Source of the DNA: a virus
Lineage: Duplodnaviria; Heunggongvirae; Uroviricota; Caudoviricetes
Direction: 5' to 3' (one strand)
DNA: 9,448 nt
Virus record (IMG/VR): IMGVR_UViG_2563366961_000004
Location: 1 to 9,448 of that record
How positions within the stretch are numbered: the first letter of the stretch is position 1; every line of letters begins with the position of its first letter. The notes beneath the pieces were generated by a model, which worked only from the letters and a program-made list of their open reading frames with translations, was not told the origin of the DNA and made no database searches. The position numbers and the translations under genes were made by a program. Positions 1-9,448 of this stretch are shown piece by piece.

Positions 1-295
1 AAGAACTGTTCACACTGTTCACCTTTCTTTTTTCTCCTTTTATTTCATAGTGATAGGTGGTGAATAATGGGTGAAGGGTGAACATTCGATTCTTCACCTC
101 CGGCATTCTGCCGGTGTGACTTGTGCAGGGGATTAATTTCCCGTGCTGAAATCACACCGGAAGAAAAAAGTTTTTTTTGATTTGATTGTTCACACTGTTC
201 ACCTTTCGTTTTTCTCTTTTAATTTCAGTGTGATAACGGGTGAATATACGGTGAAGGGTGAACAGTGGATTGTTCACCTTCGGGGGATTCAGGGA
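1..295. repeat. crr: crr-like cis replication region: two ~105-bp direct repeats (about 2-104 and 183-287) separated by ~78 bp, each carrying TGTTCACC-type octamer iterons in both orientations
   Basis: Seen directly: copy 1 and copy 2 align along their length (AACTGTTCACACTGTTCACCTTTC...GGTGAAGGGTGAACA...TTCACC). Iterons TGTTCACA/TGTTCACC at 7-23 and 188-204; inverted GGTGAANN copies at 59-84 and 250-265. In P4, as I recall, crr is two ~120-bp direct repeats with alpha-binding TGTTCACC iterons. Sits just downstream of the alpha gene. Confidence 0.65.
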
Positions 296-296
296 T

Positions 297-321
297 AAAA
301 AAAGACCGGCAGATGCCGGTC
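297..321 (-). terminator. Rho-independent terminator downstream of the alpha gene
   Basis: Stem GACCGGC (304-310) / GCCGGTC (315-321), loop AGAT; on the - strand it is followed by a U7 run (A7 at 297-303 on +). Lies 16 nt past the alpha stop codon (338-340). Confidence 0.6.
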
Positions 322-337
322 AGATGAGTCATGATGG

Positions 338-2671
338 TCAGGTTGTTGCAGGGTCGTCACATTTTGGCAGCCAGTCGCCGTAGCTTTCCTCTTTCAGCGT
401 CAGGTTGGTCTGTATCCCCTGTTTGGTATGGCGCTTCTCGTAATTCAGTCCGTATTCCTTCAGCATCACCGGCAGCCCCAGCCCGAACATTTTCAGACTG
501 AGTACATTCCGGTAGCCGTTTGCCTCCATGTAGGCCAGATAGGCGTGATAGAGGTATTTACGGTAATTACGCGGGATGATACTGGCGTTCCCCATATACA
601 TGCCGCTGGTCTGCGGCAGGGTTTCCAGATAGCCGATAAAATCAAACGTCGGGTCGGCATCCCGTTTGATGTTCAGTGCCTCGTCTGAGTTCTGCTGGGA
701 CTGAAGCAGTGACCGGGCGAGCATCGGGTCGCTGAACTTCTGCATCAGGTGACGCACGATGACCGCCAGCTCGCGGGTGATTTTGTCCTTAAGCTGCGGG
801 TCGCGCTCCTGCGGGGCTATCTGTTCCGGGAAGTGAATAATCACCCGCCGGCGTGACACGCCGCCGCTGCGGTCGGTGAAGCGCATCGGGTTATTGTTCA
901 CGGCCAGAATCACCGCCGGGATGTGCGTGGAGTACGCATCCCGGTATTTCGGGTCAACGGACACTGCATCGCCGCCGGTGATGGCCTTGAGTCCGGCTCC
1001 GTCGCCGCTCCATTTTTCCTGGTCCGGCAGGCGTATCAGTGAGAAGCCAGTTAACGCGGCACGTTCACGCGGGGATTCCAGCGTCTCGATGGTGGCCGAC
1101 GTGGCGTTATCCTCACCGGCCAGCAGGGTGGCGATTTCGGCCATGATACTTTTGCCGCTGCCGCCGGGACCGGTCACCTCCAGAAAGAGCTGCCAGTCGT
1201 AGCGGTTTGCCAGCACCATAAACAGTGCGGCCAGAATCACGTCGCGTTTTTCCGCACGGCCACCGGCGGCACGGTCAAGCCAGCGCCAGAACGCGGGGGC
1301 GTGGGTCTCCAGCGTTTCACCGTCCACCGGCGGGGTGAAATCCACATCGCACAGGGTGCGCATCCAGTGTGACGGACTGTGCGGATGGAACGTGCCGTTC
1401 TGCGTGTCGAGCACGCCGTTACGAAAGCCAATCAGGCGGCGGGAGGGGGCTTCCTGCTGCGGAATAATCAGTTTCAGGGTGTCCACCACGGAGGCCACCT
1501 TCCCGGAGGAGAACGGCGCGCGCAGACGCTGAAACAGCCCGGCCACATCCCGGGCAAAGTCCTGTGGCGGCAGCACCTTCCAGACACCATTTTCATAGCG
1601 GGACAGAAGCTGGCCGTTGGCATCGACCGCGAGCGCCTCGCCGTAATGCTCATAGATACGCATGGCCTTTTCGCTGGTACTCATGGCGGAAAACTCTGCT
1701 TCGCTCATGGTGTCGAACGGGCTTTCAGCCGGTGGCCGGATGGCATCGTAAATGGCCTTACGGGTGGCCTCCCCGCCGTACTGCGTGAAGGCATCATTCC
1801 AGTCACCGAAGACCGGCGGCAGGGCAACAACGCCCTCACACGCATCTGCGGCTGCGGCGGCTTTTTTCTGGCCGTCACCGCTGAGGTCACGGTCTGCGGC
1901 AAGGACAATCTGACAGGCCGGATGCTTCTGCCGGGCAAGGCTGGCCAGAGAAAGGAGGTTCACGGAAGAAAGCGCCACCATCACCGTTTCACCGGTCAGG
2001 TGATGCACGGTAAGTGCGGTCGCGTATCCCTCCGCTATCCACAGACGTTTTCCGGCCTGATTCTGTCCTTCAAGGGTGTGACAGGTGCCCCTGACCTGTC
2101 CGCCTTTCAGGGTGCGCTTACGGCCGTCAGCACTGATTAACTGAAGGTTAACCAGTTCGCCGCTGTCGTCATACAGTGGCACCACAAGGTCACCGGCGCG
2201 CCAGCTCACGCCACCGGCTCTGTGTGTGCCGGTCAGCATCCGGCATTCCCGGCCGGGAAAGCCCTTGCGGGTCAGGTAGGCGTTACCGGTTCCGGGACGG
2301 GTTTTTGCCATCAGGGTTTGTGCCAGTGCGGCGGCGTTCTTCCGGGCAGCGTCTGTTTCAGCAACGGCGGCGGCCGTCACTGCCGGGTCAGCCGGGGGCA
2401 GGCTGCCGGTCACGGCAGCCACCTTTGCGGCCGCGTCGGACGGAGAGACACCAAACACCTTTCCAACCAGTTTCAGGCCGTCACCGGCACCACACTGATT
2501 GCAGTACCAGGTGCCGCGCCCCTCCCTGTCATCAAAACGGAAGCGGTCACTCCCGCCACAGACCGGACAGGGCTGATGACGGTTTTTCAGCACCTGAATC
2601 CCCAGCGCCGGGAGAATACGCGGCCAGTGGCCGAGCGCATGGCTGACGGTGGCGGTTACGTTCATTTTCAT
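338..2671 (-). CDS. alpha: P4 alpha-type replication protein (primase-helicase with C-terminal origin-binding region), 777 aa
   Basis: 777-aa ORF, the length I recall for P4 alpha. N-terminal zinc ribbon CPVCGGSDRFRFDD...WYCNQCG; primase motif WIAEGYATA; Walker A VTGPGGSGKS in the helicase part. SD GGAGAA 7 nt upstream of ATG at 2671. Iteron clusters that alpha-type proteins bind occur at 1-295 and 5011-5114. Confidence 0.93.
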   Translation of the reverse strand: MKMNVTATVSHALGHWPRILPALGIQVLKNRHQPCPVCGGSDRFRFDDREGRGTWYCNQCGAGDGLKLVGKVFGVSPSDAAAKVAAVTGSLPPADPAVTAAAVAETDAARKNAAALAQTLMAKTRPGTGNAYLTRKGFPGRECRMLTGTHRAGGVSWRAGDLVVPLYDDSGELVNLQLISADGRKRTLKGGQVRGTCHTLEGQNQAGKRLWIAEGYATALTVHHLTGETVMVALSSVNLLSLASLARQKHPACQIVLAADRDLSGDGQKKAAAAADACEGVVALPPVFGDWNDAFTQYGGEATRKAIYDAIRPPAESPFDTMSEAEFSAMSTSEKAMRIYEHYGEALAVDANGQLLSRYENGVWKVLPPQDFARDVAGLFQRLRAPFSSGKVASVVDTLKLIIPQQEAPSRRLIGFRNGVLDTQNGTFHPHSPSHWMRTLCDVDFTPPVDGETLETHAPAFWRWLDRAAGGRAEKRDVILAALFMVLANRYDWQLFLEVTGPGGSGKSIMAEIATLLAGEDNATSATIETLESPRERAALTGFSLIRLPDQEKWSGDGAGLKAITGGDAVSVDPKYRDAYSTHIPAVILAVNNNPMRFTDRSGGVSRRRVIIHFPEQIAPQERDPQLKDKITRELAVIVRHLMQKFSDPMLARSLLQSQQNSDEALNIKRDADPTFDFIGYLETLPQTSGMYMGNASIIPRNYRKYLYHAYLAYMEANGYRNVLSLKMFGLGLPVMLKEYGLNYEKRHTKQGIQTNLTLKEESYGDWLPKCDDPATT

Positions 2672-2685
2672 GGTGTTGTTCTCCT

Positions 2686-3006
2686 TCAGTGCAGTACCGG
2701 CGCTTTTATGTGACGGGCACAGAGTTCATCCATCACAACCAGCCCGAGAAAGGACAGCGACGGCGCGGCCTTCAGGGGGCCGGATTCCATTAAATCTTCC
2801 AGCAGGGCACAGGCTATCTGACGCCCTTTTTCCTCACCGTGCTGGCGCAGATAAAAGCCTTCCAGCTCAGCGGCGATGGCCGCCTCCAGTGACTCAAGGG
2901 TGAGATGCGGGTAGCGGTGCTGACGTTCGCACACGGTCAGCCAGGCACAGGCGACAGCGCGACGGTAAAGGGCAGCACGTAAGACGGGCGGTAAGGGTGT
3001 TTTCAT
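2686..3006 (-). CDS. Hypothetical protein, 106 aa, immediately upstream of alpha in the left operon
   Basis: ORF with strong SD (GGGAGGAAA) upstream of ATG at 3006; ends 14 nt before the alpha start. Protein-like composition. Function not recognisable from sequence. Confidence 0.7.
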
Positions 3007-3141
3007 TTGTTTTCCTCCCTGTGACAGATGACTGCATTCCGTGCCGGTTGCATTAACTGATAAGGCATATCTGCGTCTCCTGAAGACGTGCGTATCCCTG
3101 CGCGAATACGCACATTTAATTTTTCGGGTGTCGTTTTTTAA

Positions 3142-3597
3142 TTACAGATAATTGCGGTAACTGTTATCCGGGGTGATTTCCGGGTCAGGCTCCGTGCGGG
3201 GAATTTCCCGCCATTCCCGCGCCACCGGTGCCGCCCGGCTGACCGGAACAGGGGCCTGCGGGTAAATATCCAGATATTTCTCCCGCCATTTCTGTAATTC
3301 CGGGTCTCCGGCCATTTCTTTCAGTACCGCATGCCGGTTTACGGGGCTGCGTTTAAACAGGTCAGGACGGTCACAGGTAAATTCCCGCAGAAAACGCCCC
3401 AGCGGGATGTCTGTGGTGCGCCCGTCAGCGAGGATACGCACAAGGATACTGAATTTACGGCGGTACGGGTTCCAGACAATGTCCGGGCAGCGGTACGGCA
3501 TTTCCCACGGAATACCGTCTTCCAGAATGCCGACCACGGCCACATCGGGAAAACCGGCAGAACGGTAAATCTCACCGGGCTGGGGAAAATCAAACAT
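3142..3597 (-). CDS. Hypothetical protein, 151 aa, left operon (size matches my recollection of a P4 'orf151')
   Basis: ORF whose ATG (3597-3595) overlaps the stop of the upstream 95-aa ORF in the sequence ATGTTTGA, consistent with translational coupling. No catalytic motif recognised. Confidence 0.75.
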   Translation of the reverse strand: MFDFPQPGEIYRSAGFPDVAVVGILEDGIPWEMPYRCPDIVWNPYRRKFSILVRILADGRTTDIPLGRFLREFTCDRPDLFKRSPVNRHAVLKEMAGDPELQKWREKYLDIYPQAPVPVSRAAPVAREWREIPRTEPDPEITPDNSYRNYL

Positions 3598-3877
3598 GCG
3601 TCTTGTCTCCCCGGTCTTTCTGCTGGGCGAGAAAATCGCGGCACAGGCCTTTGGCTTTCAGCTCATTCAGCACAAAATCAATATCTTCATTCAGGTAGCT
3701 GAAAATATGCGGAATGTAGAGCTGATGCAGGCCGGAGAGTTCACGGTGAATCAAATCACCCCCAACAAACTGGGATACGGCGCTGGCGCGGTTGAGCTTA
3801 TGGTAAGCCTCAATGCTGAGGTGTTCACGGGCGTCATGACGCGCTGAGACGGTCTGAGGGGCTTTTTTATTACGCAC
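3590..3877 (-). CDS. Small protein, 95 aa if started at GTG 3877; positional candidate for a P4 epsilon-like helper-derepression protein
   Basis: SD GGAGGT 5 nt upstream of GTG at 3877-3875; this start overlaps the stop of the upstream 65-aa ORF (GTGCGTAA). The longer 147-aa reading from ATG 4033 adds a Cys/Pro/Ser-rich, non-protein-like N-terminus and is disfavoured. Assignment as epsilon rests on position and size only. Confidence 0.55.
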
Positions 3878-4067
3878 GGGACACCTCCACCACCGGCAGA
3901 CGGGCAGCAAGGGAGAGCACATAGTCACGGACAAGGGAACGGCGGGCACTGCGTTCATCACCGGCGACGGTGCGAAGCATGCAGATACGGGGATGACGGT
4001 CTGCGCGACGGACAGCCGCAAACACAAAGACAAATTCAGGGTGTGAAGGGGTAAGGGTTGTAGCCAT
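3870..4067 (-). CDS. Small hypothetical protein, 65 aa, first translated ORF after the immunity leader (a kil-like position in P4 terms)
   Basis: ATG at 4067-4065 preceded by GGAGG with 8-nt spacing; it is the C-terminal part of a longer artefactual 214-aa ORF. Stop overlaps the GTG start of the next ORF. Function unknown. Confidence 0.4.
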
Positions 4068-4097
4068 GATGGCAGCCTCCGTTAGATAGCAGGTTAC

Positions 4098-4385
4098 GCT
4101 ATCGCCGGAGTTTCCACGCTCGATGGCGATAGCCCAGACGGGGGTGGAAATACCGGCTCTAACGGATACCGGCCAGCCCGGAGGCTGCCCCGCCTGAGCT
4201 ACCATTGACTCTGCGGCATAATGAGCGGACGCGGGCAGGATGCACGGAGTTCCATCTGCTCGACTGACCACACACCACACCATAATCTGGCGCTCTGTGG
4301 CGTTGATTGCGACACAAAAAAAGACGCATGGCGCGTCATATGTCGCCGTTAGATTGCTCGGGTTTCCACGCCCGGCTGCCGATTT
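4098..4385 (-). promoter_or_regulatory. P4-type immunity/leader region: two GCGUGGAAAC boxes (RNA sense) flanking one complementary UUUCCAC box; candidate CI-like small RNA and seqA/seqB/seqC-like architecture
   Basis: Seen directly: GTTTCCACGC on + at 4110-4119 and 4362-4371; complement GTGGAAA at 4144-4150; box 4110-4119 lies in the loop of a 9-bp hairpin (GCTATCGCC 4098-4106 / GGCGATAGC 4125-4133). In P4, immunity is an RNA (CI) whose seqB pairs with seqA and seqC on the nascent leader. Exact RNA ends cannot be set from sequence. Confidence 0.4.
4316..4337 (-). terminator. Intrinsic terminator inside the leftward leader, between the promoter-proximal box and the complementary box
   Basis: Stem GACGC (4323-4327) / GCGTC (4333-4337), loop ATGGC; followed on the - strand by U7 (A7 at 4316-4322 on +). 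Confidence 0.5.
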
Positions 4386-4400
4386 TGCGACAGCGGAAAA

Positions 4401-4430
4401 ACTATATCCGCAAATGCCGGAAAAAGGCAA
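4401..4430 (-). promoter_or_regulatory. Candidate sigma70 promoter for the leftward leader/operon (PLE-like)
   Basis: On the - strand: TTGCCT (-35; + coordinates 4430-4425), 18-bp spacer, TATAGT (-10; 4406-4401). Located between the vis stop (4466) and the first GCGUGGAAAC box. Hexamer matching only. Confidence 0.35.
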
Positions 4431-4465
4431 GCCAGAAAAAGGGACTTTTTGCAGAACAGGCATCA

Positions 4466-4732
4466 TCATGCGTCGTACCCCCGTTTGCGTCCGGCAATGC
4501 GGCCGGCCATCCATGCGGTGACTTCAGAGTGCAGCCAGGCCACATTTTTACCGCCAAGACTCACCTGCGGCGGAAATTCCCCCTTACGGATGAGTTCGTA
4601 GATGGTCGAGCGTGACAGGCCGCACAGGTGCATCACTTCCGGAAGACGTAAAAAACGCTCCTGTGTGATGTCCGGCAGCGGCATCAGTGGCGTCACAGGG
4701 GCGGGAGACGGGGAAGAAAAAACAGCTTGCAT
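4466..4732 (-). CDS. vis: AlpA/Vis-family small DNA-binding regulator/excisionase, 88 aa
   Basis: Core [50 protein letters not shown] is the characteristic AlpA-family helix-turn-helix region. SD GAGGT 6 nt upstream of ATG 4732. An internal start at Met17 (72 aa) cannot be excluded. Confidence 0.8.
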
Positions 4733-4834
4733 CGGGCTACCTCGTTAATGTCCATACAGCACCGGATAAGTCCGTCCGGCTTCGGGTAGCGCTTTATTTT
4801 GTGAATATTTTCGGCAGACGCAACAGGGGGGATT

Positions 4835-4852
4835 TGTTCCGGCAGCCTTACA
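4835..4852. promoter_or_regulatory. TGT-N12-ACA dyad, candidate Delta/Ogr activator site of a leftward late promoter (PLL-like) upstream of vis
   Basis: TGTTCCGGCAGCCTTACA fits the TGT-N12-ACA dyad that P2/P4 late promoters carry near -55. Lies about 100 bp upstream of the vis start on the - strand. Confidence 0.35.
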
Positions 4853-5010
4853 ATGGCTGTGCATTTTTTGTACATCAGCGCCAGATAGCTTTAAAACGCT
4901 CTGGAAGGAGCTGGAAAAAATTATAGTGAAATACAAATTGTTTTTTCTTATTTATTTCAGTGAATTAATAAAAATAAAAAGTAATAAACAGCACAAAAAG
5001 CCCATCAACG

Positions 5011-5114
5011 GGTGAACAGTGGTGAACAGACGGTGAACAGTCATTACTGCGATTGTTCACCCTTTAACTTACTGTATTACTTATCTTTTTTCTTATTGTG
5101 AACAGAGGTGAACA
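5011..5114. repeat. ori: ori-like iteron cluster: six TGTTCACC-type octamers next to an AT-rich block (about 4921-4990)
   Basis: GGTGAACA at 5011-5018, 5021-5028, 5032-5039; inverted TGTTCACC at 5054-5061; TGTGAACA at 5097-5104; GGTGAACA at 5107-5114. Same octamer as in the 1-295 repeats. Located between the divergent vis and sid genes. P4 ori is recalled to contain alpha-binding iterons. Confidence 0.65.
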
Positions 5115-5195
5115 GTAAAATATAAAAAAAAACAAACAGTAAGCCGGTTTTTCCTGCGACCTTTTCCTGGCTTGCCGGTCTGAGGATGAGTCTCC

Positions 5196-5213
5196 TGTGT
5201 CAGGGCTGGCACA
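5196..5213 (+). promoter_or_regulatory. TGT-N12-ACA dyad, candidate Delta/Ogr-dependent late promoter for sid-delta-psu (Psid-like)
   Basis: TGTGTCAGGGCTGGCACA at 5196-5213; centre about 80 bp upstream of the sid ATG (5286), compatible with an activator site near -55 and a short leader. Confidence 0.4.
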
Positions 5214-5285
5214 TCTGCAATGCGTCGTGTTGTTGTCCGGTGTACGTCACAATTTTCTTAACCTGAAGTGACGAGGAACCGGAAA

Positions 5286-6020
5286 ATGTCTGACAACACC
5301 ATCCCTGAATATCTGCAACCCGCGCTGGCACAACTGGAAAAGGCCAGAGCCGCCCATCTTGAGAACGCCCGCCTGATGGATGAGACCGTCACGGCCATTG
5401 AACGGGCAGAGCAGGAAAAAAATGCGCTGGCGCAGGCCGACGGAAACGACGCTGACGACTGGCGCACGGCCTTTCGTGCAGCCGGTGGTGTCCTGAGCGA
5501 TGAGCTGAAACAGCGCCACATTGAGCGCGTGGCACGCCGGGAGCTGGTACAGGAATATGACAATCTGGCCGTGGTGCTGAATTTTGAACGCGAACGCCTG
5601 AAAGGGGCGTGTGACAGCACGGCCACCGCCTACCGGAAGGCACATCATCACCTTCTGAGTCTGTATGCAGAGCATGAGCTGGAACACGCCCTGAATGAAA
5701 CCTGTGAGGCGCTTGTCCGGGCAATGCATCTGAGCATCCTGGTACAGGAAAATCCGCTCGCCAACACCACCGGCCATCAGGGCTACATCGCACCGGAAAA
5801 GGCTGTCATGCAGCAGGTGAAATCATCGCTGGAACAGAAAATAAAACAGATGCAAATCAGCCTCAGCGGTGAGCCGGTTCTCCGGCTGACCGGACTGTCA
5901 GCGGCAACACTCCCGCACATGGATTATGAGGTGGCAGGCACACCGGCACAGCGCAAGGTGTGGCAGGACAAAATAGACCAGCAGGGAGCAGAGCTTAAGG
6001 CCAGAGGACTGCTGTCATGA
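5286..6020 (+). CDS. sid: Sid, capsid size-determination (external scaffold) protein, 244 aa
   Basis: Protein begins MSDNTIPEYLQPALAQLEKARAAHLENARL, which I recognise as P4 Sid. ATG 5286 has SD GAGGAA 7 nt upstream; the ORF-track start at 5268 is an in-frame GTG 18 nt upstream and less likely. Stop overlaps the delta start (ATGA at 6017-6020). Confidence 0.9.
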   Translation: MSDNTIPEYLQPALAQLEKARAAHLENARLMDETVTAIERAEQEKNALAQADGNDADDWRTAFRAAGGVLSDELKQRHIERVARRELVQEYDNLAVVLNFERERLKGACDSTATAYRKAHHHLLSLYAEHELEHALNETCEALVRAMHLSILVQENPLANTTGHQGYIAPEKAVMQQVKSSLEQKIKQMQISLSGEPVLRLTGLSAATLPHMDYEVAGTPAQRKVWQDKIDQQGAELKARGLLS

Positions 6021-6517
6021 TTTACTGCCCGTCGTGTGGACATGTTGCTCACACCCGTCGCGCACATTTCATGGACGATGGCACCAAGATAATGATTGCA
6101 CAGTGCCGGAATATTTATTGCTCTGCGACATTTGAAGCGAGTGAAAGCTTTTTCTCTGACTGTAAAGATTCAGGAATGGAATACATTTCAGGCAAACAGA
6201 GATACCGCGATTCACTGACTTCTGCCTCCGGCAGTATGAAACGCCCGAAAAGAATGCTTGTTACCGGATATTGTTGTCGGAGATGTAAAGGCCTTGCACT
6301 GTCAAGAACATCGCGGCGTCTGTCTCAGGAAGTCACCGAACGTTTTTATGTGTGCACGGAGCCGGGCTGTGGTCTGGTGTTTAAAACGCTTCAGACCATC
6401 AACCGCTTCATTGTCCGCCCGGTCACGCCGGACGAACTGGCAGAACGCCTGCATGAAAAACAGGAACTGCCGCCAGTACGGTTAAAAACACAATCATATT
6501 CGCTGCGTCTGGAATGA
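6017..6517 (+). CDS. delta: Delta, late-gene transcriptional activator (tandem Ogr-like zinc-finger domains), 166 aa
   Basis: Two Cys4 modules (CPSCGH...CRNIYC and CCRRCK...CTEPGC); 166 aa as I recall for P4 Delta; translationally coupled to sid. Confidence 0.9.
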   Translation: MIYCPSCGHVAHTRRAHFMDDGTKIMIAQCRNIYCSATFEASESFFSDCKDSGMEYISGKQRYRDSLTSASGSMKRPKRMLVTGYCCRRCKGLALSRTSRRLSQEVTERFYVCTEPGCGLVFKTLQTINRFIVRPVTPDELAERLHEKQELPPVRLKTQSYSLRLE

Positions 6518-6590
6518 GGGCTGCCGGTTAACCCCGGCCGTCGCCGCACACCGTATTTTTATTCTTCAGCATGATGAGAAAGAGATAACG

Positions 6591-7163
6591 ATGGAAAGCA
6601 CAGCCTTACAGCAGGCCTTTGACACCTGTCAGAATAACAAAGCAGCATGGCTGCAACGCAAAAATGAGCTGGCTGCGGCCGAACAGGAATATCTGCGGCT
6701 TCTGTCAGGAGAAGGCAGAAACGTCAGTCGCCTGGACGAATTACGCAATATTATCGAAGTCAGAAAATGGCAGGTGAATCAGGCCGCCGGTCGTTATATT
6801 CGTTCGCATGAAGCCGTTCAGCACATCAGCATCCGCGACCGGCTGAATGATTTTATGCTGCAGCACGGCACAGCACTGGCGGCCGCACTGGCACCGGAGC
6901 TGATGGGCTACAGTGAGCTGACGGCCATTGCCCGAAACTGTGCCATACAGCGTGCCACAGATGCCCTGCGTGAAGCCCTCCTGTCCTGGCTTGCGAAGGG
7001 TGAAAAAATTAATTATTCCGCACAGGATAGCGACATTTTAACGACCATCGGATTCAGGCCTGACGCGGCTTCGGTGGATGACAGCCGTGAAAAATTCACC
7101 CCTGCGCAGAACATGATTTTTTCGCGTAAAAGTGCGCAACTGGTATCACATCAGTCTGTGTAA
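6591..7163 (+). CDS. psu: Psu, polarity suppression / capsid decoration protein, 190 aa
   Basis: 190-aa ORF beginning MESTALQQAFDT, in the sid-delta-psu order typical of P4; followed by a terminator hairpin and then cos. Confidence 0.9.
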   Translation: MESTALQQAFDTCQNNKAAWLQRKNELAAAEQEYLRLLSGEGRNVSRLDELRNIIEVRKWQVNQAAGRYIRSHEAVQHISIRDRLNDFMLQHGTALAAALAPELMGYSELTAIARNCAIQRATDALREALLSWLAKGEKINYSAQDSDILTTIGFRPDAASVDDSREKFTPAQNMIFSRKSAQLVSHQSV

Positions 7164-7199
7164 AACTCCCCGAAAATCCGCCCGTTTTTACTGAAAAAA

Positions 7200-7232
7200 G
7201 CCATGCATCGATAAGGTGCATGGCTTTGCATG
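7200..7232. terminator. Bidirectional intrinsic terminator between the convergent psu (+) and cargo NTPase (-) genes
   Basis: Stem GCCATGCA (7200-7207) / TGCATGGC (7217-7224), loop TCGATAAGG; flanked by AAAAAA on the 5' side (U6 for the - strand) and TTTGCATGCGTTTT on the 3' side. Confidence 0.55.
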
Positions 7233-7327
7233 CGTTTTCCTGCCTCATTTTCTGTAAACCGTGCCATTCCCGGCGCGGTCTGAGCGTGTCAGTACAACTG
7301 CATTAAAACCGCCCCGCAAAGCGGGCG

Positions 7328-7346
7328 GGCGAGGCGGGGAAAGCAC
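7328..7346. other. cos: cos site core: 19-nt P2/P4 cohesive-end sequence
   Basis: Exact GGCGAGGCGGGGAAAGCAC at 7328-7346, the cohesive-end sequence I recall for P2 and P4. Preceded by a GC-rich dyad (CCCGCAAAGCGGG, about 7313-7325). In P4 cos lies directly after psu, as here. Confidence 0.8.
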
Positions 7347-7380
7347 TGCGCGCAGTATAAGAATTAAATAGGTATGGATT

Positions 7381-9075
7381 TTAAAATCCATCAAGTAGCT
7401 GATTGATACCATTGCTCTCATCACAATTTATTTGCTCTAACTCAAATAAAGCACTGTCGTACTTTATTTGGGGAGTGTTTTCAAATGACAATAAAGATTC
7501 GATTAGTCTTATTTCTTTATCTTTATTTATGTCTTTAAGTGAGTCTAAAGTTAAATTGAATTTAACTTCGGGTTGTTTTCCTACTTCCATCATGATATTT
7601 GACTCCAACTCTGGATCAGTATTGAAGAATCGATGTGTCTTATGGAAATAACTAGGTTTTCTTGATTTTAAAATACTTAGTATATCCGACTTGATAGTGC
7701 TTTCCCGTGCTATCACAAGCCAATGGTTGGCAACCCCTGTGATGGTGGTAATGATGTGGGAGCCATTTTCACTTAGTTCATTAAAGGCTCTTAAGTCACC
7801 CTTGAAAAAATCATTTAGCAACTCATTTTCTTTATCTTTATCAAAAAGGTAAATTATTGAATTGCCGGCTAATGATATTTCAGCCTTGGTTTTTATAGTA
7901 TCGCAATTAAATTGCGCGGTCTCATTTTTTAATTCTTCGTAAGATGATTTTAAGTCTAAAAGCAAGCATTTTATTATACTTGATCTGAAAGATGAGTAAT
8001 CAATATCAGCACAAAGTGAAAATAAATTTCTGTGACGAATGGATTCAGGGCTGTAATATAGCTTTGTTAATATTTCTTTTTGGCGTTCTTTTGTGTCACG
8101 ACAGATAAACATAGCTGCAAAATATTCCATTAATGATTTGTGTGACCAACGAATAATAGCGCCTTCTTTGACAAATAATGGAACGGTTTCAATTAAGTCC
8201 TGAATAAAAAGAGATGGTGAAGTTGATATTCCGGGAATTTTTGAAATGATATTTTGCAATGTTATTTGCAGATCGTCTTTCGTAAACTCAATTTTACCTC
8301 CGTCTTTCAAACACCAAAAACCTAATCTCCTTAAGACCTGATGGAAGTCAGTGGAGTCTAGCTTAGAAAATTTTTCTCTAACATAACCAAGTTCTTTAGT
8401 TAAATCATGAGACTCATACAAAGCGTCAAATACTTGGCTATAAAATAACTCTCTTTTTCTTGGTATTATCGGTTTGAATTTATATGCACAAAATAATAAT
8501 GAAACATAAAGAGGTGTGGATAAAAATTCATTTAGATTATGACCATTCTCCAGTCGTAATCCTTTAATTAATTGAGATGAAATAGGGCCACGTCCATCAT
8601 ATCGACGTAATAGATCATACGCTTGATTCGTTTCTAATGGGTTGATTTTAAATCTTGAGAAACCATGTAGTTCTGATAAGAAATTATCATGACGAGAAGT
8701 TATAATTATTTTGCTTTCTGAGAAATTATTAGCAAAGGTACTTAGTAAATTTACGATCTTGGATTTGAGTTGTTGTGGGATTTCATCTATGCCATCGAAA
8801 AGATAAATAAAAGGGATTTTTTTGAGGCAGTTGTCTGAAATGTCTTCTCCTAAACCAAGTTGATGTTTCACCTGTAGCGCAAAATCATAATCTTTAGCAC
8901 GTCGTAATTCAATGTATATTGGAATGTATTCCTTATTAGCGATGCAATCTAAAGCAATTCTTTTCATTAGGGTGGACTTACCCATTCCTGCTGAGTCAGT
9001 GATTAATATATGATTGAAATTATCTAATAAATCTGCATTGTCTTTTATTAGGCATGTGTATGGTTTTTTTTTCAT
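7381..9075 (-). CDS. NACHT-type STAND NTPase (564 aa as drawn) with a ~230-aa C-terminal region of unknown fold; candidate anti-phage defence protein
   Basis: Walker A ITDSAGMGKST (aa 24-34); Walker B of the NACHT hhhhDGxDE type (IYLFDGIDEI); sensor-1-like IIITSR. AT-rich, unlike the P4-like core. The ATG sits directly on an A9 run and has no SD, and the upstream ORF joins it with a 1-nt shift, so this may be the downstream part of one larger gene. Confidence 0.8.
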   Translation of the reverse strand: MKKKPYTCLIKDNADLLDNFNHILITDSAGMGKSTLMKRIALDCIANKEYIPIYIELRRAKDYDFALQVKHQLGLGEDISDNCLKKIPFIYLFDGIDEIPQQLKSKIVNLLSTFANNFSESKIIITSRHDNFLSELHGFSRFKINPLETNQAYDLLRRYDGRGPISSQLIKGLRLENGHNLNEFLSTPLYVSLLFCAYKFKPIIPRKRELFYSQVFDALYESHDLTKELGYVREKFSKLDSTDFHQVLRRLGFWCLKDGGKIEFTKDDLQITLQNIISKIPGISTSPSLFIQDLIETVPLFVKEGAIIRWSHKSLMEYFAAMFICRDTKERQKEILTKLYYSPESIRHRNLFSLCADIDYSSFRSSIIKCLLLDLKSSYEELKNETAQFNCDTIKTKAEISLAGNSIIYLFDKDKENELLNDFFKGDLRAFNELSENGSHIITTITGVANHWLVIARESTIKSDILSILKSRKPSYFHKTHRFFNTDPELESNIMMEVGKQPEVKFNLTLDSLKDINKDKEIRLIESLLSFENTPQIKYDSALFELEQINCDESNGINQLLDGF

Positions 9076-9340
9076 TATCGTAATAAATGCTCATTGGCTC
9101 ATAAATATCTAGAAGCTCTACTGGAGTATTTTGAAAAGCTAAGGTATTCACAAGGGAGCATTGCCCTTTCACATTTGATAGGAAACGTTCAAGATTTTTA
9201 TTCAAGAAGCGTGCTGCATGTACATCTATTAAATAATTACGAACACTACTTTCTATGATAGGTAATATTTTATTCTTAATAACCTCCTTTGCCCATGGAA
9301 GGGATGCAGAGACTAATACATCAAGAGATACTGGTTGCAT
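9020..9340 (-). CDS. 106-aa ORF encoding a probable N-terminal module (~92 aa before the A9 tract) of the NACHT protein; separate frame, overlapping the NTPase ORF by 56 nt
   Basis: ATG at 9340 with a weak AAGG SD. Reads through the A9 tract as ...DNEKKT... and stops 18 codons later. Deleting one A gives an in-frame junction ...YYDNEKK-PYTCLIKDNADLL... with the NTPase. No known effector motif recognised. Confidence 0.5.
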   Translation of the reverse strand: MQPVSLDVLVSASLPWAKEVIKNKILPIIESSVRNYLIDVHAARFLNKNLERFLSNVKGQCSLVNTLAFQNTPVELLDIYEPMSIYYDNEKKTIHMPNKRQCRFIR

Positions 9341-9448
9341 GAATTATACCTTATTTTGGTAATGACTCCAACTTATTGATAGTGTTTTATGTTCAGATAA
9401 TGCCCGATGACTTTGTCATGCAGCTCCACCGATTTTGAGAACGACAGC

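Follow-up and report, generated by a model that had tools for sequence, protein, structure and literature searches.

One of the questions raised by the P4-like satellite analyzed here is why its NACHT gene is divided between two overlapping open reading frames (ORFs). The window (the whole stretch of DNA that was analyzed, 9,448 nucleotides, positions 1 to 9,448 of IMG/VR record IMGVR_UViG_2563366961_000004) is a P4-like satellite of Escherichia coli that carries a NACHT gene, bNACHT22, in its psu–int slot. The break in the gene lies in a run of nine adenines, and an answer that we consider probable is that this A9 allele is a genuine loss-of-function or strongly hypomorphic form of bNACHT22, created by a replication-slippage frameshift that recurs in nature.

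The run is located at positions 9064 to 9072 and reads T9 on the plus strand, which is A9 in the coding (minus) direction; the intact allele has A8 at this place, which makes the run the site of a +1 frameshift. It covers the last two bases of Glu90 followed by Lys91 and Lys92 (in the A8 context GAA AAA AAA CC). ORF1 (9340..9020, minus strand; 106 amino acids) reads through the run and encodes bNACHT22 residues 1–92, then 14 out-of-frame residues (TIHMPNKRQCRFIR) and a stop. ORF2 (9075..7381, minus strand; 564 amino acids) starts at ATGAAAAAAAAACC and consists of MKKK joined to bNACHT22 residues 93–652. A first-pass annotation of this DNA had proposed that the A9 run splits the gene into a 106-amino acid ORF and a NACHT ORF, and the interval it gave, 9020–9075, is exactly the overlap of the two. 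It had also proposed that deletion of one nucleotide would fuse them into a protein of ~652 amino acids, and indeed removal of one A yields a 652-amino acid product (...IYYDNEKKPYTCLIKD...) that is an exact match to RefSeq WP_001183326.1. The whole frameshifted gene (7381..9340, minus strand) is 1960 bp long, compared to 1959 bp in the intact allele (652 amino acids and a stop). According to in silico translation the frame is restored only by A8 or A11 transcripts, while A7 and A10 lead to a stop within a few codons.

A run of this length is by itself statistically unremarkable. A/T runs of at least eight bases are found at three loci in the window, with five overlapping matches of the pattern against an expected 1.3 ± 1.6, and 10 of 200 shuffles reached five matches; the G+C content of the bNACHT22 gene is 33%. 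The non-random aspect is that the run is the sole frame break of an otherwise intact and conserved gene, in a window whose other genes are all intact.

WP_001183326.1 is bNACHT22, a clade 14 protein that was cloned from E. coli ECOR36 (Kibby et al., supplementary tables, bioRxiv 10.1101/2022.07.19.500537). Proteins of this clade combine a NACHT module with a short C-terminal domain and lack a recognisable effector (Kibby et al.). In the repaired product Pfam detects NACHT (34.5 bits, cut-off 26.7) and SNaCT5 (31 bits, cut-off 27; residues 446–638), so that the domain order is an N-terminal helical region, the NACHT NTPase module and the C-terminal SNaCT5. The preprint is said to have been published later in Cell, in 2023. 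Residues 1–90 matched no Pfam, NCBIfam or PADLOC family, and an NCBIfam search with the product of the NACHT gene gave nothing. A marginal match to PADLOC Avs2 (E 0.002) was of no use for naming the protein, and the name was taken from the tables of Kibby et al. The AlphaFold2 model of the repaired product has a mean predicted local distance difference test (pLDDT) score of 82, and Foldseek matches it to the NACHT modules of NLRC4, NLRP3 and NOD2 with E values of about 1e-12. The Walker A (GMGKST) and Walker B (DGxDE) motifs are invariant in 26–32 relatives; seven residues encoded by ORF1 (P15, A17, P27, A68, F69, N71, and Y80) are likewise invariant across the family.

By placing the frame break on the model, it can be seen what each ORF retains. 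The break is at the turn of a β-hairpin, formed by strands 83–87 and 95–98 (pLDDT 83–88), which is positioned between the N-terminal helical bundle and the P-loop strand. ORF1 contains the helical bundle (residues 1–62) and the first strand of the hairpin, and ORF2 contains the second strand, the P-loop GMGKST, the remaining NACHT module and SNaCT5. ORF1 keeps an AAGG motif 9 nt upstream of its start. The first-pass annotation had described the NACHT ORF as lacking a Shine-Dalgarno sequence, and no such motif is found within the 30 nt 5' of the ORF2 ATG (tttatgagccaatgagcatttattacgata). This ATG, which lies partly within the run and lacks a Shine-Dalgarno sequence, is therefore a chance start codon.

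This arrangement can be read as a functional split, in which the 106-amino acid peptide and the 564-amino acid NACHT–SNaCT protein work as separate polypeptides. Such a split would be in line with the position of the break near the boundary of the NACHT module as annotated by Kibby et al. (residue 100) and with the P-loop, NACHT and SNaCT5 being kept together in ORF2. Yet, ORF2 lacks a ribosome-binding site, the break passes through a confidently predicted β-hairpin and not a linker, the allele is rare, and no relative has a two-gene arrangement, so that we regard a working split as extremely improbable.

The mechanism that we favour, a slippage frameshift that disables the gene, would start from a functional allele with A8 in the hairpin turn just before the P-loop. 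Replication slippage would then add one A, translation from the native start would end after 106 codons (92 native and 14 foreign residues), and the rest of the gene would be left behind an accidental ATG without a ribosome-binding site. Because ORF2 has lost the conserved N-terminal part together with one of the two hairpin strands, and has no ribosome-binding site, the allele is expected to be null or strongly hypomorphic.

Another question is which tract length is the normal one. The first-pass annotation had suggested that tract length be compared in related loci, and this comparison gave A8 in each of the 25 complete E. coli genomes with this locus, based on a 71-nt query across the run that aligned with exactly one gap in each; seven of the 25 were also read directly as A8. 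All 25 annotate an intact NACHT protein. A pattern that is indifferent to tract length had four matches, on three IMG/VR contigs and one JGI contig (L025–L028), and all four are A8. At the protein level, two intact variants are found on ~975 and 706 contigs, of which the former is the exact repaired product. Relatives down to 38% identity, from many Gammaproteobacteria, are single proteins of ~650 amino acids with 100% query coverage, and none of the relatives shows a two-gene arrangement. Homologous loci with two consistently separate ORFs, which the first-pass annotation had named as a refutation of its reading, were thus the opposite of what was seen, namely one ORF throughout. These comparisons indicate that the one-ORF architecture is ancient and that A8 is the ancestral state.

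The run itself is not conserved. Among relatives of 76–84% identity it is an in-frame A8 in Enterobacter and one other, while it is broken into GAT AAA AAA in Citrobacter (L021/22) and by the synonymous GAA AAG AAG in another relative (L023); more distant relatives have other residues at this position. A separate observation within the family is an in-frame deletion of ~66 residues in the NACHT module of P0029 and of around a dozen Klebsiella pneumoniae proteins that resemble it. P0029 (586 amino acids, 60% identity, one form on 46 contigs) lacks the region after Walker B (columns 217–293 of alignment A1), and proteins of this type are possibly another inactivated or re-purposed member of the family.

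If A8 is the normal state, it may be asked whether the A9 is real at all. One option, raised also in the first-pass annotation, is a homopolymer sequencing or assembly error in a strain that is truly A8 and has an intact gene. This would fit the A8 of all complete genomes, and especially that of the closest one (L001), which has the same insertion of the insertion sequence IS1 as the window together with A8. Two other A9 assemblies (L012 and L015) show systematic +1 over-calls in homopolymers, and in the window there is a second A8 to A9 difference at 5124–5132. Against an error, the A9 is reproduced in GCA_000351945.1 (L005), a non-identical assembly of the same lineage that differs from the window by four substitutions and one indel and shares both the IS1 insertion and the A9. 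Moreover, A9 is the sole indel, relative to an A8 reference, over 2.3–6.3 kb in at least five further independent assemblies (ERR9385121, ERZ27245116, SRR32758665, ERR8652025, and ERZ913980), some of which are MEGAHIT-style metagenome contigs. The T5 at 7185 and the A7/A8 variation at 5124 are ordinary polymorphisms of complete genomes, and the remaining genes of the window are intact. We had suspected systematic over-calling in the window, where the three indels that separate it from the closest complete genomes are all +1 in A/T runs; this suspicion was dropped because the 7185 and 5124 sites are polymorphic in complete genomes and because A9 is the sole indel elsewhere. An error is therefore unlikely for the window, given L005 and the five sole-indel assemblies, and probable in L012 and L015.

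The second option of the first-pass annotation, a real inactivating frameshift, is the one best supported, by L005, by the five further assemblies and by the occurrence of A9 on at least two haplotypes. The window is 100% identical to scaffold KE137131.1 of GCA_000408485.1, its source assembly, in which ORF2 is annotated as WP_001571806.1. The products of A9 are found more widely, with the 106-amino acid ORF1 on up to 15 contigs and the 564-amino acid ORF2 on 7; the A9 product is overall counted on 6–15 contigs, compared with the ~975 and 706 of the intact proteins. On haplotype A, A8 is found in L001, L002, L026, and L028, and A9 in the window and in L004–L008; on haplotype B, A8 is found in L025, L027, L030, and L032, and A9 in L013 and L017. 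Haplotype C has A8 in L029 and A9 in L011, the latter with one extra indel, and haplotype D has A8 in L003 and L031 and no A9. All four combinations of IS1 presence or absence with A8 or A9 exist in haplotype A, a pattern that calls for no fewer than two or three tract changes of independent origin, or else for recombination.

Changes in the other direction are also found. An A7 allele gives a 96-amino acid truncated product (P0136, WP_226473509.1) on 17 contigs, the largest of 5.2 Mb; products of A10 and A11 are absent from the protein collection. A9 and A7 each account for ~1% of occurrences, and the ±1 variants together for about 2% of copies. Such rare variants fit a mutational hotspot in a dispensable accessory gene and not a maintained two-frame design; as the A8 run is such a hotspot, the same +1 and −1 events have recurred in E. 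coli. Taken as sequence evidence, the existence of the A9 allele, its natural recurrence, the one-ORF ancestry and the lack of conservation of the run all emerge from these comparisons.

Several points weigh against a genuine and recurrent loss of function. A9 is found in none of the 25 complete genomes. L012 (GCA_024496645.1) and L015 (GCA_024547185.1), which are long-contig assemblies, carry five +1 insertions in 4.75 kb, in A/T homopolymers of 6–8 bases, when compared with a complete genome; this is systematic over-calling, which gives rise to spurious frameshifts both in the NACHT gene and at other sites, and both assemblies were left out as evidence for A9. In L009 and L011 the NACHT gene carries one more homopolymer indel (T7 to T6 at gene positions ~1531–1537 and A7 to A6 at ~518–524, respectively), which may be either further decay of a dead gene or a platform error, and they were treated as uncertain. 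Some of the apparent recurrence of A9 is hence artefact or later decay. In addition, we infer the loss of function from the architecture of the allele, and the antiphage function of intact bNACHT22 is itself weakly supported. The intact protein decreased the plaque-forming units of phage T3 without reducing plaque size, and it was left out of the authors' confident hits (Kibby et al.). bNACHT22 is for now a single-gene, NLR-related candidate anti-phage protein, and the label of a costly defence gene, used in the first-pass annotation, is an assumption; the intact gene gave an ambiguous T3 effect only.

A further question is whether the run may serve the bacteria or the satellite as a regulatory device. 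In this option the A8/A9 run is kept as an evolved contingency switch for phase variation, and/or as a site of programmed slippage that allows low stochastic expression of the full-length protein. In its favour, +1 (and −1) changes arose repeatedly and independently, on several haplotypes, A9 is the length at which slippage of enterobacterial RNA polymerase becomes detectable (PMC1088944; PMC5009743), and the A11 run of Citrobacter tssM is a precedent for the rescue of an interrupted gene (PMC4256274). However, the off alleles make up only ~1% each, and the run is replaced by AAG AAG in L023, by GAT in L021/22 and by other residues in distant relatives. There is also no stimulatory hairpin, a feature of some though not all of the known slippage sites, upstream of the run (minimum free energy −4.8 kcal/mol, z = +0.5 against shuffles). 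Of the features of programmed slippage, a run of at least nine bases is present (A9), and a conserved run and a two-ORF layout are not. A −1 ribosomal slip at the run would be unproductive because A7 and A10 stop early, and RNA polymerase would have to make a deletion or a +2 insertion, which is disfavoured on poly(A) for the E. coli enzyme (PMC6260861). As to the rate at which such a switch could operate, no directly usable values for E. coli indel rates by run length were found in the literature. In E. coli with functional mismatch repair, an A8 run is much less mutable than the classical contingency loci, which counts against a switch. All in all, an evolved switch or programmed slippage seems very unlikely. 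Its more specific form, in which the A8 run is a slow reversible on/off switch whose A9 state still supplies a trickle of full-length sensor through slippage, is likewise very unlikely; a lineage with such a switch could rid itself of the gene's cost or autoimmunity risk and later recover the gene by a single-base reversion.

Slippage may still act on the disabled A9 allele as a side effect. In enterobacteria, slippage of RNA polymerase can be detected on A or T runs of about nine bases (PMC1088944; PMC5009743); on poly(A) the E. coli enzyme needs at least eight A's and favours insertions, and deletion slippage was undetected on runs of up to 8 (PMC6260861). Any full-length protein made from the A9 allele would thus come from rare A8 or A11 transcripts, as an unselected by-product of RNA polymerase slippage. 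Since a deletion or a +2 insertion is needed, such leaky rescue is probably weak. Of the third option of the first-pass annotation, expression through slippage, the designed mechanism is not supported, in view of the ancestral A8, the unconserved run, the missing hairpin and the disfavoured direction, and a leaky by-product may occur.

The gene is also altered on its upstream side. Positions 9358..9448 (minus strand; 91 nt) are the insB-distal end of an IS1 element, which points in the same direction as int and the NACHT gene and is inserted 17 bp upstream of the NACHT ATG. Comparison of the window and L001 with the IS1-free L002 reveals a 9-bp target-site duplication, CCTTATTTT (9349..9357), the minus strand of which includes the AAGG Shine-Dalgarno motif of ORF1. 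The insertion is also present in L001 (11160–11930), which is annotated at the same junction with an 'IS1-like element IS1A family transposase', and the window ends at a 405-N scaffold gap within IS1. The same insertion is found with A8 (L001) and with A9 (the window and L005). It hits the last codons of int, which changes the C-terminus from ...NKV to ...NKG, and it separates the NACHT gene from int, a region that served as the 'native promoter' fragment of the published bNACHT22 clone.

The surroundings of the gene are those of a P4-like satellite. The alpha primase gene (338–2671, minus strand), with Pfam primase domains, is followed by a DUF5375 gene (2686–3006, minus strand), and sid, delta and psu occupy 5268–7163 on the plus strand, with Pfam matches to Ogr_Delta and Psu and with sid annotated in L001–L003. 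The psu gene (6591..7163, plus strand; Pfam Psu 1.9e-87), which encodes the polarity suppression protein, bounds the psu–int hotspot. In complete genomes the satellite adjoins ssrA/smpB, based on the annotation of sid, int, ssrA and smpB in L001–L003. The psu–int slot of P4-like satellites is a defence hotspot (Rousset et al., 2022; PMC9122126), and in relatives of 76–84% identity the NACHT gene is likewise located between int and psu. The plasmid and phage collections contained no close copy. In L012 and L015 the satellite int is flanked by genes for an AAA_15/AAA_21 ATPase and a D12 methyltransferase and not by ssrA/smpB, so the satellite with the same cargo seems to be in a second chromosomal context, or beside another island.

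Two further length polymorphisms were observed in the window. The second A9 run (5124–5132) is intergenic, upstream of sid, and the corresponding run is A7 in L003, L029, and L031, A8 in L001, L002, and L030, and A9 in two KTE assemblies. In the interval that separates psu from the NACHT gene's 3' end, positions 7181–7185 show a T4/T5 polymorphism; T5 at 7185 is common in complete genomes (L027, L029, L030, and L032), which means that it is not an error of the window assembly.

For annotation, the practical consequence is that pipelines and defence censuses would record a shorter 'NACHT domain-containing protein' (WP_001571806.1) together with a hypothetical protein at this locus, whereas the proper annotation is a disrupted bNACHT22. 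The locus is a small natural example of the loss of a satellite defence gene via homopolymer slippage and IS insertion. A reversible switch with leaky expression, if it existed, would be a first instance of an NLR-like gene of bacteria under contingency-type control; the present evidence is against it.

The gene, the kind of location and the kind of disruption are all known, and no published mention of the A9 allele was found. Compared with the bNACHT22 of Kibby et al., the window encodes an identical protein once one A is removed, and the gene shares the position next to int and the NACHT and SNaCT layout without a recognisable effector domain. It differs in that its allele is frameshifted at codon 92, with 106 and 564 amino acids in place of one uninterrupted ORF, and in the IS1 between int and the gene. 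Compared with the hotspot described by Rousset et al. (2022; PMC9122126), it has the same psu–int slot, the same alpha primase, sid, delta and psu genes and the same ssrA site; no description of frameshifted or IS-interrupted cargo was found in the text of that paper, where 'NACHT' appears in the reference list only.

With regard to the run itself, at least nine A/T bases that join two frames are also found in Citrobacter rodentium tssM1 (A11; PMC4256274), in Shigella mxiE/spa and in Thermus dnaX (A9; PMC5009743). In these genes both products are required, and the run is conserved along with the two-frame layout, whereas the A9 of bNACHT22 is one base longer than virtually all copies, is not conserved and makes a rare two-frame allele. 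A closer likeness is to the 'pseudo pseudogenes', in which a frameshift extends a non-slippery A8 to a slippage-prone A9 in some isolates only (Baranov et al., 2005, Genome Biol 6:R25; PMC1088944). The bNACHT22 allele agrees with this definition in its A8 to A9 change, its single-ORF orthologues and its presence in some isolates only, and the event in a coding run is the same as in that study, which also includes an E. coli example. The difference lies in the direction of rescue: the case illustrated by Baranov et al. is rescued by insertion of an A, while the A9 of bNACHT22 needs a deletion of one nucleotide or an insertion of two, which is expected to be rarer.

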